Positions 38,284 to 43,713 of a stretch of 64,000 bases of DNA are shown here, in pieces. The DNA is from Lachnospiraceae bacterium UBA4631. Lineage in GTDB: Bacteria; Bacillota; Clostridia; Lachnospirales; Lachnospiraceae. The DNA lies in NCBI GenBank assembly GCA_002406015.1, contig DHMX01000023.1, positions 238,233 to 302,232 on the forward strand. The letters are read 5' to 3'. Below the pieces are notes generated by a model, which did not search any database, was not told the origin of the DNA, and saw nothing but the letters and a program-made list of their open reading frames with translations. A program made the translations under genes and the position numbers. The number at the start of each line of letters is the position of its first letter. The stretch's first letter is position 1.

Positions 38284-39993
38284 ATGATTTCACAGACAGG
38301 TTATCCATCTGTAGACAAGCCTTGGTTGAAATATTACAGCGAGGAAGCAATCCATACACCGCTTCCGGAAAAAACATTATATGGGTATCTGTATGAAAAT
38401 AATCGGAATAATATGGAATCAGTTGCTTTGAATTATTATGGAAAAAGAATTAGCAATAAAGATTTTTTTGAGCATATAAAAGAGACCGCTGATGCATTTG
38501 CAGCAATAGGAATTAAAAAGGGAGATATGGTTACTATATTATCACTTATAACTCCGGAAACTATTTATTGCATATATGCATTAAATTACATAGGTGCAAT
38601 TGCTAACATGGGATATTTGTCTTTATCTGATGATGAAATTGTTCATATGGTTGAAAAGACTAATTCGAAAATAACAATTGTACTTGATGTTGCAGCAGAA
38701 AAGGTTATGCACGTCCAGAAGAGATTAACATCAGAACTGACGATTATTCTTCCGCTAGAATCGAGTATGCCATGGTTGATGAAGGCTATTGTGAAGTTGA
38801 AGAAAAAGAAATTTCCGAATGACGGAAAACAGGTACTAACATATATTTCATTTGTAAAAAAATATGCAGGGCAGAAACAGGCAGTAGAAGTACAGTGGAA
38901 AGAAGACCAATCGGCAGTTTTGGTTTATACCAGTGGCACAACCGGAGAGCCCAAAGGAGTTGTTCTGACAAATGACAATATTAATGCAGTTGCATTTCAA
39001 TATAAGTATTTAGGATTGAAATTTAACAAAGGGGAAACAATCCTTACATTCATGCCGCCATTTTTGGCAATTGGGTTTAGTTTGAATGTGCATATGCCAT
39101 TATCATTAGGGCTTGAAGAAGTTATAAATCCCAATCCGGATCCTGATGTATTGACAAGGTTTTATAAAAAATATAGACCAAATCATTTCATAGCTGCTCC
39201 AACTAACATTTTGCAAATAATAGAGGCTATGCATGGAAAAACAATGTGTAATTGCATCACATTGGCAGGTGGCGGAGAATCTATGACACCTCAACAGGAA
39301 GAAACGGTAAATAAATATCTTGCGGAACATGGTTCAAATGCAAAATATAGTACGGGTTACGGAATGACAGAATTTGCTGCAACAGTCACAGTAGGACTTA
39401 ACGCCGTATATCGTGAAAATACACTGGGAATTCCATTATGTAAGACAATCGTAAAAGTTGTGGATACGGAAAATGGAAAAGAATTGCCATATGACGAAGT
39501 AGGTGAGTTGTGCTTTCATACGCCAAGTCAGATGAAGGAGTATTATCTTAATCCTAAGGAAACCGCTGAGACGGTTATTCAGCATGAAGATGGCATGAAA
39601 TGGATTAGGACGGGTGATTTAGGCTGGGTTGACAGAGATGGATTTGTCCATTTTAAAGGCCGTATGAAACGTATTTACATGACACAAGGAGAGGATGGAA
39701 CATTATACAAAGTATTTCCTGCAAGAACAGAAAAGGTTCTTATGGAAATCGAAAATGTAAAAAAGTGTGCAGTAACTGTAAGAATGGAAGGAAAGCTTGT
39801 AAAGGAACAGATAGCTTATCTTGTGCTGAATAAAGGGGCAGAAAAAGAAAAGATATTAGAGAAGGTAAAAGCACACTGTAAAAAATCCCTTCCTTCACAT
39901 TCTGTTCCTGCGAAATATGTACTACTGGAAGAAATTCCACTTACCCAAAGTGGGAAGACAGATTATAAGACATTGGAAAGAATGACAAAATAA
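38284..39993 (+). CDS. ANL-superfamily adenylate-forming enzyme (acyl-CoA synthetase / acyl-AMP ligase), paralog 1, intact
   Basis: VLVYTSGTTGEPKGVVLTN (A3 motif), GYGMTE, TGDLGWVDRDGF, and the C-terminal catalytic Lys in QSGKTDYKTL. The N-terminus is MISQTGYPSVDKPWLKYY. Confidence 0.9.
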   Translation: MISQTGYPSVDKPWLKYYSEEAIHTPLPEKTLYGYLYENNRNNMESVALNYYGKRISNKDFFEHIKETADAFAAIGIKKGDMVTILSLITPETIYCIYALNYIGAIANMGYLSLSDDEIVHMVEKTNSKITIVLDVAAEKVMHVQKRLTSELTIILPLESSMPWLMKAIVKLKKKKFPNDGKQVLTYISFVKKYAGQKQAVEVQWKEDQSAVLVYTSGTTGEPKGVVLTNDNINAVAFQYKYLGLKFNKGETILTFMPPFLAIGFSLNVHMPLSLGLEEVINPNPDPDVLTRFYKKYRPNHFIAAPTNILQIIEAMHGKTMCNCITLAGGGESMTPQQEETVNKYLAEHGSNAKYSTGYGMTEFAATVTVGLNAVYRENTLGIPLCKTIVKVVDTENGKELPYDEVGELCFHTPSQMKEYYLNPKETAETVIQHEDGMKWIRTGDLGWVDRDGFVHFKGRMKRIYMTQGEDGTLYKVFPARTEKVLMEIENVKKCAVTVRMEGKLVKEQIAYLVLNKGAEKEKILEKVKAHCKKSLPSHSVPAKYVLLEEIPLTQSGKTDYKTLERMTK

Positions 39994-40018
39994 GATTGAC
40001 AAAGGAGGAGGAAAAAAT

Positions 40019-41774: not shown

Positions 41775-41978
41775 AAATACTGAAAAGAAAACAAATGAAA
41801 CTCTGCGACGGAAGACATTGAAACCATGTTGAATGTCTGACCAAGAAAACGAACGAAGGGCGAGAATATGAGGCAGTTGTGAAATCCTTGAGTGGTTTAT
41901 GACTAAAGAAAAATGTCCTGAAAAATTTAAGACAATATTTTTATAAAAAGATAGATTGACAAAGGAGGAGAGAAAACT

Positions 41979-43713
41979 ATGATTTCGCAGACAGACAGAC
42001 AGACAGACAGACAGACAGACAGACAGACAGACAGGTTATCCATCGGTTGATAAACCATGGCTTAAATATTATGAACGTGCACTTGATGATTCGGATATTC
42101 CGAAATGTAGTGCATACCATTTGCTTTACCAAAACAATAAGGATTATATGAATGATGTTGCACTCATTTATTTTAATAGAAAAATAAAATTCAAAGAGCT
42201 GTTTGACAAAATCCATAAGACAGCGGCATCACTCAAGGAACTTGGCATAAGGAAGGGAGATGTAGTTACTCTTCAGGTATTGAATATGCCTCAGGTTGTG
42301 GAATTGTTTTATGCAATCAGTTATATCGGTGCAGTAGCCAATCTGATATATGCATCTGCCTCTTGGAAAGAAACAAATGAGATTTTACACCGGACAGAAT
42401 CAAAGATGTATATAACCGTTGACTTTTTATGGACAAAACAACAGTGTGCTGTTGAGGGAACGAATGTAAAGCACATCTTGTTGCTCGGTACTGGCGAAGA
42501 GGCAGACGGCTTAACAAAGACTATAATAAAAATAAAATCAAATGCAATAAAAAATGATAGATGCATGAGTTGGAAGAAGTTTCTTGAAATCGGAAAGGAA
42601 ATGCCGGATGAAATAAATGAATCAGAGCTTCCGGTAGCAATGGTATACACTGGTGGAACTACAGGAAAGTCAAAGGCAGTTGTTCTGGCGAATAGAAGTA
42701 TGAATGCACTGGTATATCAGTATGCATATACATATGCATCGCTTCAGCGGGGAGAAACCTTTTTAAATACGTTACCACCGTTTATTGCATTTGGTATTGT
42801 ATTTACTTTACATATGCCGTTGTGCCTTGGCATTCGAAATGCCTTGGTAACAGATCCTGCACCGGAAAATGCAGGGAAATATTTCTGTAAATACCAGCCT
42901 AATTACTATATATGTGGAATTGCTGGTATCGATAGCATTATGAATCATAAAAAGATAAAGAAGATGAATTTGGAGTTTGTTAAGGTACTTGGTGCAGGCG
43001 GGGAGGCAATACCACATGCATTTGAAGAAAAGGTTAATAAATTTCTTAGAGAGCATAAGGCAGGTACTATATTATCGATAGGCTATGGGATGACAGAGGT
43101 TGCTGCCACAGCCGTAACATCAACGCCGGAGGTACATAGAACGGGAACTGTCGGAATTCCGCTTCCGGGAACAATAATTAAAATTGTTGAACCGGATACC
43201 ATGAAAGAACTCTCATATGAACAGGATGGGGAAATTTGCTTTTGCACACCTACTATGATGCTTGGGTATTATAAAAATGAAGAGGAAACGGACAACATTA
43301 TCAGATGCCATGCGGATGGAAAAAGGTGGATTCATTCAGGGGATATAGGACATATAAGCGAGGATGGATTTTTAACTGTTTCAGGCAGAATAAAGCGGAT
43401 GATTGCAACATGGGGAGAAAATGCATACCATAAGGTGTTTCCTCAATTAATAGAAGAACTGTTTGCGGAACTGGAAGGTATAAATGCAGTTACTGTCGTT
43501 GGAAGAAAAACAACGGATGTTTTTCATGAGTTGATAGCATTTGTTGTACTGGATGAGACTCATGGTGAAGAAGAAATGCTTAAGGTACTAAAGAAAACAG
43601 CAGAAGAAAAATTAGATACATGGGAGCAACCGGTTGAATATCGTTTTATGGAAAGACTTCCTAAAACAGCGATTGGCAAGGTTGATTATAGAAAACTGGA
43701 GACTATGGTGTAA
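41979..43713 (+). CDS. ANL adenylate-forming enzyme paralog 3; the ATG is separated from the body by (CAGA)11+CAG and is currently out of frame (phase OFF)
   Basis: ATG 41979 (RBS AAAGGAGGAG) reads MISQ(TDRQ)n..LSIG then TGA at 42048-42050. The body (track ORF 42121-43713; YTGGTTGKSKAV, GYGMTE, AIGKVDYRKL) is open in another frame back to 41983, where it reads ...DRQTGYPSVDKPWLKYY. Confidence 0.8.
41988..42034 (+). repeat. Perfect tetranucleotide repeat (CAGA)11 plus CAG
   Basis: Counted directly: 47 nt of uninterrupted CAGA periodicity starting 9 nt after the ATG. Confidence 0.95.

Follow-up and report, generated by a model that had tools for sequence, protein, structure and literature searches.

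What does a perfect four-nucleotide repeat do when it stands directly behind the start codon of an enzyme gene? This question is raised by a 64,000-nt stretch of Lachnospiraceae bacterium UBA4631 (contig DHMX01000023.1; the whole stretch is called the window, and all positions are window coordinates), in which three tandem genes, here named P1, P2 and P3, encode ligases of the ANL superfamily, and P2 and P3 carry long CAGA tracts. Our analysis indicates that these tracts very probably cause genuine repeat-mediated ON/OFF variation, which would make P2 and P3 simple-sequence-repeat contingency genes. All four of the contingency-locus features that we tested were found at this locus.

Both tracts begin 9 nt after the ATG, right behind codon 3, and both are perfect repeats in the 5′ coding region with a unit that is not divisible by three. 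A 12-nt repeat probe, CAGACAGACAGA, matched the window at 19 places, all 19 of them inside the two tracts, and gave no match in each of 100 shuffles. P2 and P3 are both out of frame in the window, a point absent from the earlier note on this DNA, and translation from the ATG halts after 20 and 23 codons, respectively. When tract changes of −2 to +2 units were simulated, −1 and +2 alone restored the full length (583 and 587 aa for P2, 576 and 580 aa for P3), all remaining lengths stopped within 58 codons, and productive lengths recurred at multiples of three units; in simulation, a change in repeat number thus toggles between a full-length open reading frame (ORF) and an early stop. Reading the sequence, we found that a TGA inside ATGA and a TGA inside TTGACA shut the two other frames, and therefore one phase in three is productive.

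We propose that slipped-strand mispairing in replication adds or drops CAGA units in the P2 and P3 tracts, and that the ligase body of about 560 codons is in frame with the ATG at only one of every three tract lengths. With units gained and lost and one length in three productive, each gene would flip stochastically and heritably between ON and OFF, and the N-terminus in the ON state would read MISQ(TDRQ)n. P2 and P3 would both be OFF in this assembly, one unit from ON, and P1 would be fixed ON. The earlier note had taken one ligase as constitutive and two as switchable; the toggling of full-length ORF and early stop agrees with this, but both switchable genes are OFF here.

The anatomy of the array is given in Table 1, together with the other genes of the cassette in which it lies. 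P1, P2 and P3 have a common start, ATGATTTC(A/G)CAGACAG, as the earlier note had described, and it is preceded by a Shine-Dalgarno sequence (SD). Also borne out were the 18-nt block AGATTGACAAAGGAGGAG of P2 and P3, with its sole occurrences at 39993 and 41953, and the 30-nt stretch TGGTTGAAATATTACAGCGAGGAAGCAATC of P1 and P2, with its sole occurrences at 38323 and 40113. The leader of P1 holds only CAGACAG (38293-38299, 1.75 units), and P1 is in frame for that reason. This heptamer had been described as a 7-nt seed in P1 that expanded in P2 and P3; it is indeed present, but the true unit is 4 nt and the seed is 1.75 units of it. The short seed of P1 may be either ancestral, with later expansion in P2 and P3, or a collapsed tract.

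Table 1. Coordinates of the ligase array and of the cassette around it, in window positions.
Feature	Position	Strand	Remarks
Serine recombinase (resolvase), cassette head	34096-34710	+	PF00239 3.5e-31; also heads the sister cassette in L001/L002
178-aa protein and 234-aa protein	34935-36162	+	234-aa protein with one long hydrophobic segment, residues 55-96 (hydropathy)
Acyltransferase AT323, GPAT/LPLAT family	36159-37130	+	PF01553 7e-12; HX4D motif HSNSHD
DUF2806 protein (303 aa) and small acidic 59-aa ORF	37174-38257	+	PF10987 9.7e-18; between AT323 and P1
P1 ANL ligase	38284-39993	+	569 aa, intact; PF00501 2e-60 and PF13193 1.9e-10
P2 ANL ligase	ATG 40019, body end 41774	+	PF00501 2.4e-54 and PF13193 8.2e-15
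P2 5′ module	39993-40027	+	18-nt block with TTGACA, SD AAAGGAGGAG, then ATG 40019 and ATTTCA
P2 repeat tract	40028-40075	+	48 nt, (CAGA)12, 100% perfect, out of frame here
P2 linker and ANL body	40076-41774	+	linker GCATGAGCTGACG = EHELT when ON; body frame open 561 codons
P3 ANL ligase	ATG 41979, body end 43713	+	PF00501 1.1e-62 and PF13193 2e-11
P3 5′ module	41953-41987	+	18-nt block, SD, ATG 41979, ATTTCG
P3 repeat tract	41988-42034	+	47 nt, (CAGA)11CAG = 11.75 units, 100% perfect, out of frame here
P3 ANL body	42034-43713	+	frame open 559 codons; stop overlaps next ATG (TAATG)
Acyltransferase AT321, cassette end	43713-44678	+	divergent PF01553-like, 0.0032 (below cutoff); HX4D motif HVGKDD

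Other assemblies of the same species were recovered by exact-protein look-ups, and tract length was found to differ between near-identical strains. In contrast to the window (P2 48 nt and P3 47 nt, both OFF), contig L013 has a P3 tract of 43 nt that is ON, with a 576-aa product called, and begins inside the P2 tract. Over the 13,968 nt aligned between L013 and the window there are no mismatches and one gap, which is one CAGA unit in the P3 tract. L012 and L016, which come from one sample, are 100% identical to the window in the flanks of the P2 tract, and this tract is at least 53 nt there (contig broken inside it) versus 48 nt in the window; P3 is 47 nt and OFF in L012. Both tracts are much altered in L015 (P2 16 nt, P3 23 nt, both OFF). 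P3 is thus found in both states among same-species contigs, ON at 43 nt and OFF at 47 and 23 nt, and the rest of the ORF is intact in either state, since the bodies of P2 and P3 are open for 556-561 codons in every same-species copy. Five further contigs begin or end within a tract. Contig ends of this kind were not counted as heterogeneity, because the 5′ modules of P2 and P3, with 95% identity across 82 nt, could be enough to interrupt an assembly.

Comparison of the window with L015 gave pN/pS values of 0.13 for P2 (8 synonymous and 4 non-synonymous differences) and 0.26 for P3 (20 synonymous and 19 non-synonymous differences), modest evidence that the bodies are under purifying selection although both genes are OFF in the two sequences compared. 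The same pair is 100% identical over 4.8 kb upstream and 98.4% identical over 10 kb downstream, and the identity switches exactly at the P2 leader and tract. The shift, at L015 11744-11760 (window 40043-40059), suggests that recombination broke off at the shared module.

Searching with the P1 protein returned thousands of homologs, the named ones being Lachnospiraceae, Dorea, Acetatifactor and Lachnospira eligens, and a genome scan with P1 gave relatives of 83% identity in a Lachnospiraceae metagenome-assembled genome and in Blautia schinkii MSK.6.26. Within single 90%-identity clusters, the N-termini form a ladder, MRAEQ(SRAEQ)nTGFPS with n = 0-3 and lengths of 571, 576, 581 and 586 aa. These 5-aa steps are the predicted signature of a 5-nt repeat that changes by three units: RAEQS is (AGAGC)3 read in frame, as the repeated element of MMGTEQNR(TEQNR)n is (ACAGA)3 and QTDR is (CAGA)3. 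Many members of the same clusters are called from an internal Met (527, 546 or 556 aa) or from a spurious upstream start, which is how gene callers behave on out-of-frame alleles. P1-type genes 80-84% identical to P1 (a cluster named Lachnospira eligens, and Blautia) bear (AGAGC)n or (ACAGA)n tracts. Hence the description of P1 as constitutive suits this genome, where P1 has no tract, but not these relatives. In the isolate B. schinkii MSK.6.26, (AGAGC)~10 (11 copies by TRF) and (ACAG)9 stand in two ANL leaders of one contig.

A wider picture came from scanning metagenomes with the DKPWLKYY codons, which gave 95 contigs whose leaders were scored for an SD-preceded ATG, a tract and the frame. 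Across these contigs (CAGA)n, (AGAGC)n or (AGAAC)n repeats occupy the same leader position. Repeat-bearing alleles were 13 ON and 19 OFF, versus 51 in frame and 5 not among repeat-free alleles (Fisher p = 6e-7). The ON share of the former (about 40%) is indistinguishable from 1/3 (p = 0.45), and 18 of the 19 OFF alleles have intact bodies. Within ortholog groups, series of OFF, ON and OFF alleles were observed at 33, 43 and 53 nt for AGAGC and at 37, 45 and 49 nt for ACAG. As for simple-sequence-repeat (SSR) tracts in the 911 kb of fetched DNA, 45 of the 64 are found upstream of the DKPWLKYY codons at a distance of no more than 60 nt; 10 of the remaining 19 belong to ANL leaders that stand at a contig end or precede a variant motif, and 9 are (CAAG)n. 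The latter is a second hypervariable tract of 39-63 nt behind an SD-ATG-like start, present in nine contigs (L010, positions 184-222; L024, L037, L043, L058, L066, L068, L071 and L112). In L010, the only one of these loci that was read, the distance from this tract to the (AGAGC)n ligase start downstream is about 170 nt, and (CAAG)n may be a second control layer in Blautia-type arrays.

In a sister lineage, P1 is 92% identical, and all three ligases have only a short or interrupted seed and are all in frame. The third ligase of this sister array is split by an insertion sequence (IS) element with an rve transposase in L005 (3780-6785), stops in L006-L008 after the same 412 aa, shortly ahead of the contig end, and is intact in L001-L004. 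L001 lacks some small genes and the second PF01553 acyltransferase of L002 and L003, so array content is strain-variable.

The leader common to paralogs and genera has the form TTGACAAAGGAG-N8-10-ATGATTTCACAGACAG[AGCATGAGCTGACG]. Among paralogs of the 'SEEAI' class, which share 32-45% protein identity, body codons 1-18 are 76-96% identical at the nucleotide level and the rest about 50%. In several pairs, identical residues use identical codons more often in the leader than elsewhere: at 15 of 17 leader positions versus 54% in the rest when window P2 is compared with L001_A, and at 13 of 14 versus 45% when L010_1 is compared with L010_2. P3 has the SD-ATG-tract module in common with P2, yet without excess synonymous identity further in. 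We take these patterns, and the shift in identity to L015 at the P2 tract, to reflect repeated exchange or conversion of a 5′ module that is portable. The proposal of the earlier note, that gene conversion or else selection acts on the leader, is thus borne out in part: homogenization is real for the 'SEEAI' class, but for P3 the sharing is confined to the SD-ATG-tract module. The shared leader would be the substrate from which the CAGA, AGAGC and ACAGA/AGAAC repeats grew. The best sigma-70-like sites of the 12-kb region (TTGACA-16-TATGAT, 11/12) are found at 39996-40023 and 41956-41983, overlapping the SD and ATG of P2 and P3. Transcripts from these sites would start inside the repeat and lack the start codon, and for this reason we did not build upon them. 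TTGACA is kept in the leaders read (window, sister array and Blautia), with CTGACA in two sister-array leaders.

The three ligases share 35-37% protein identity with one another, and all have the AMP-binding N-domain and the C-terminal domain of the ANL superfamily. The core motifs are present in all three, namely A5 (GYGMTE or GYGLTE), A8 (GRMKR or GRIKR) and the A10 catalytic lysine (SGKTD, VGKTD and IGKVD), and a three-way alignment confirmed the A3 motifs as quoted earlier (TSGTTGEPKG, TSGTTGFPKT and TGGTTGKSKA). In the alignment P1, P2 and P3 differ in segments A4 and A5, which form the walls of the acyl pocket in the ANL superfamily, as had been claimed for the substrate-pocket regions, and at 35-37% identity this makes identical pockets unlikely; the pocket comparison is confined to A4 and A5, since mapping of pocket residues onto a solved ligase would be unreliable at 20-22% identity. 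The AlphaFold2 (AF2) model of P1 has a predicted local-distance difference test score (pLDDT) of 89.4 and the two-domain fold. Foldseek matched it to luciferases, 4-coumarate-CoA ligase (4CL), benzoate-CoA ligase and FadD1 at 1e-45 to 1e-39, and it superposes best on 4CL in the CoA-bound conformation (template-modelling (TM) score 0.78-0.84). Among solved proteins, sequence comparison placed FadD-1 (3g7s, 2.9e-35) nearest. None of the named subfamilies in NCBIfam (FadD, MenE, benzoate-CoA ligase and others) claims the three proteins. Since they have the ANL motifs, reach no NCBIfam cutoff and match FadD-1 and 4CL-type enzymes, P1, P2 and P3 are assigned as putative stand-alone acyl/aryl-CoA-ligase-like enzymes.

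The array is bracketed by two soluble acyltransferases, AT323 and AT321. The AF2 model of AT323 (pLDDT 87) has its nearest folds in PlsC (5kym), PatA (5oce/5f2z) and GPAT1 (8e4y). A 324-aa relative of AT321 from the same 90% cluster ends the sister cassette (PF01553 0.0036), and AT321 homologs occur in 23 of 49 metagenome loci. A PF01553-type acyltransferase occurs in 30 of the 49 metagenome loci (at least 5 kb) that have this ANL type. In Blautia-type arrays, the ligases are interleaved with three more PF01553 proteins, and the sister array has an additional Acyl_transf_3 membrane acyltransferase. The stop of P3 and the start of AT321 overlap (TAATG, 43711-43715), and from this arrangement translation of AT321 may be coupled to that of P3, in which case P3-OFF could lower AT321 too.

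L001-L003, L006 and L015-L018 all keep one order of genes: resolvase, 178 aa, 226/234 aa, acyltransferase, ANLs, acyltransferase. The genes for the 178-aa and 234-aa proteins are conserved beside the resolvase in the sister cassette, and neither protein has a Pfam, NCBIfam or PADLOC match; the DUF2806/59-aa segment is present in all same-species contigs. GC content of the cassette is 33-38% versus about 43%. In the sister lineage the cassette occupies another place in the chromosome, and it is for that reason regarded as mobile. A phage or known-plasmid origin was rejected, as collections of plasmids and phages gave no DNA match and only protein matches of about 27%; the leader motif was not found in viral contigs. 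We likewise rejected an anti-phage defence system, the PADLOC matches being the neighbouring JetA3/B3/C3 and a weak one to a Schlafen-like gene. An Rfam scan of 30000-47000 and a tRNA scan of the whole window found nothing, and given the empty Rfam scan no riboswitch or known RNA appears to be involved.

The ligases share a low-GC, resolvase-linked cassette with acyltransferases that resemble PlsC and PatA, and the likely output is therefore that acylation of a lipid or glycolipid varies, a reading held with clearly lower confidence than the switch. Each ligase would probably activate a different carboxylic or fatty acid, AT323 and AT321 would then attach the activated acid to a lipid or glycolipid acceptor, and a population would be a mix of up to four acylation states. 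What the sequences establish is the anatomy, the frame logic, the tract polymorphism of near-isogenic strains, the existence of ON and OFF alleles whose bodies are intact, and the enzyme families; slippage rate, reversibility, substrates, acceptor and phenotype are what we infer here. Going further, we can only tentatively suggest a mobile, modular 'combinatorial acylation' system in abundant human-gut Lachnospiraceae (Lachnospira eligens relatives and Blautia). Diverged ANL ligases and LPLAT acyltransferases would be combined in it under a portable, slippage-prone leader that is spread by gene conversion and has at least three repeat units, and continuous acyl diversification of a membrane lipid or cell-surface glycolipid might hedge the population's bets against phages, IgA or shifts in the supply of fatty acids.

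If P2 and P3 were instead decaying pseudogenes, disused and knocked out by a slippage-prone repeat, one would understand why neither is in frame in the window or in L015, nor P3 in L012, and why the body is truncated or interrupted by an IS in some relatives. This is quite unlikely, however, given that the bodies are open in every same-species copy, that pN/pS is 0.13 for P2 and 0.26 for P3, that P3 is ON in a strain otherwise identical over 14 kb, that intact bodies (18/19 OFF alleles) and an ON share of about 40% prevail family-wide, and that the tracts are perfect and not eroding. An origin of the tract lengths in errors of assembly or sequencing, with genes that are in truth in frame, is hardly credible. 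Several short-read contigs do end within tracts, and modules of 82 nt with 95% identity can mislead de Bruijn assemblers, but tracts of 43-48 nt are below usual short-read lengths, independent spanning assemblies give discrete whole-unit length differences between perfectly matching flanks, and the in-frame protein variants are spaced 5 aa apart, exactly the step that three pentanucleotide units predict. The pattern also recurs in dozens of unrelated metagenome assemblies and in the B. schinkii isolate.

The repeats might also be kept for the peptide that they encode, a variable (TDRQ)n spacer at the N-terminus with no on/off role, and in-frame alleles with 1-5 peptide repeats are in fact called as full-length proteins. 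Selection for a peptide fits poorly with tract lengths in all three frames at a near-random 1:2 ratio, with three nucleotide units that encode unrelated peptides (TDRQ, RAEQS and TEQNR) at one position, and with sister arrays that have no repeat at all, and we consider it highly improbable. A further rival is site-specific recombination between leaders, driven by the resolvase, in which shuffling or deletion of cassettes would be the main event and the repeats secondary. A resolvase heads the cassette, the paralog leaders are near-identical, array content varies between strains (for example L001 versus L002), and the identity to L015 shifts exactly at the P2 tract. But the ANL genes all run in direct orientation and every one has an SD and ATG of its own, the search for inverted repeats gave no convincing pair around a leader or promoter, a resolvase homolog is present in only 5 of 49 related loci, and near-isogenic strains differ by a repeat unit rather than by a rearrangement, all of which leaves this explanation very unlikely. 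An inverton or shufflon was rejected on the direct orientation and on the lack of a strong inverted repeat bracketing a leader, the only long one being that at 34710-34818. This is an imperfect repeat directly after the resolvase gene (45-nt arms, 73% complementary, 19 nt apart), which could be a terminator or a recombinase site.

Several points weigh against slippage-driven switching of P2 and P3 and against its proposed role in acylation. The contig breaks at the tracts could be due to confusion of the assembler by the near-identical P2 and P3 modules and not to heterogeneity. Mostly OFF states are observed in this species, and no ON allele of P2 was found among the same-species contigs (48 and 16 nt OFF, at least 53 nt in a broken contig). 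The pN/pS figures are based on just 12 differences for P2 and 39 for P3. The tract variation is known between assemblies, and it is variation within a population and reversibility that we infer. On the enzyme side, the ligases fall below every curated NCBIfam cutoff (best 247-271 bits versus 476-766), the 178-aa and 234-aa proteins, AT323, the DUF2806 protein, P1, P2, P3 and AT321 match no PADLOC model, and no carrier protein, substrate or acceptor was identified.

Among known systems, repeat-mediated switching of P2 and P3 would by analogy be matched most closely by the lipooligosaccharide (LOS) genes of Haemophilus influenzae with 4-nt repeats. The unit of lgtC, GACA, is a cyclic permutation of CAGA in another register. 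As in P2 and P3, a perfect 4-nt repeat just behind the start codon sets the frame by its length in these LOS genes; they switch surface-modifying enzymes ON and OFF, and several per pathway yield combinatorial states. The contingency genes concerned are lic1A with (CAAT)n, lgtC with (GACA)n and lex2A with (GCAA)n (see PMC11868660 and PMC3546556). The hosts differ, a Proteobacterial pathogen there and a Gram-positive gut commensal (Lachnospiraceae) here, and so do the enzymes, glycosyltransferases and choline kinase there and ANL ligases beside LPLAT acyltransferases here; moreover, one shared leader yields three repeat units here in different genes and lineages. The opa genes of Neisseria are switched by a pentanucleotide, (CTCTT)n, a 5-nt coding repeat in the signal-peptide region of an outer-membrane adhesin. 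They resemble the present family, in particular the relatives with (AGAGC)n and (ACAGA)n, in that paralogs each have their own 5′ coding repeat and are switched independently, but the repeat here lies in an N-terminal extension of a cytoplasmic enzyme.

With respect to the enzymes, E. coli Aas (2-acyl-GPE acyltransferase/acyl-ACP synthetase; NF006386) joins an LPLAT acyltransferase to an ANL module, and AT323 and the three ligases match the respective halves. Here, however, the functions lie in separate genes and in several diverged copies, which are not known to depend on ACP, and Aas is not known to be phase-variable; a fused protein of the Aas type reaching the NF006386 cutoff of 1221 bits was not found, AT323 scoring 24.5 bits and the ligases 124-175 bits. 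PatA (mycobacterial) and PlsC, which use acyl-CoA or acyl-ACP donors to acylate the hydroxyl of a lipid or glycolipid, provide the best structural neighbours of AT323 (5kym, 5oce and 5f2z). AT323 differs from them in its low identity (9-17%, TM score 0.35-0.62) and by having roughly 80 additional residues at the C-terminal end.

Nearly all work on phase variation in the gut microbiome has dealt with invertible promoters (Bacteroides and C. difficile) and methylation. For Clostridia, a 2025 review has inversion switches only (PMC11868660). Our full-text literature search found no repeat-slippage switch in Lachnospiraceae and no phase-variable ANL ligase. As far as this search shows, the mechanism is textbook, and the novelty lies in the host group, in the enzyme family and in a common leader with three repeat units. 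If true, this would be the first repeat-based 'phasome' in commensal Clostridia and the first phase-variable ANL family (per the same search). Tetra- and pentanucleotide loci of the contingency type are common in human-gut metagenome contigs of this group, on genes that plausibly alter lipid or glycolipid acylation. If the switching is confirmed, strain-level phenotypes of major commensals, such as phage sensitivity, immune recognition or the use of host and dietary fatty acids, could vary among the cells of a clone. There is also a practical side, in that gene callers mis-annotate these ligase genes with truncated or false upstream starts, and that assemblies often end inside the tracts, for which the near-identical modules of P2 and P3 may be the cause.

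Further observations concern the neighbourhood of the cassette. Directly downstream lies a Wadjet type III system at 45681-52403 (JetA3 1.7e-216, JetB3 1.9e-105 and JetC3 E = 0), for which no JetD match was obtained in the three adjacent ORFs tested, and a Zn-phospholipase-C-like gene stands between the cassette and Wadjet on the minus strand (44679-45728). At 57483-57537, 4.2 copies of a 13-nt unit, ATAGTATAACAGG, follow one another with 76% identity, 23 nt after an ORF end at 57460 and before an ORF start at 57671; it has no relation to the ligase switch. Upstream, a gene with Schlafen-AlbA2, HATPase_c_4 and winged helix-turn-helix (wHTH) regions (32129-33505) has a perfect 11-nt repeat, AAAAGTACGGG, of 4.3 copies at 33272-33318. 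No variation of this repeat was seen, with 4.0 copies in both other spanning contigs (L015 and L016). The repeat is translated in frame immediately ahead of the wHTH, and a change of one unit would remove the DNA-binding domain.

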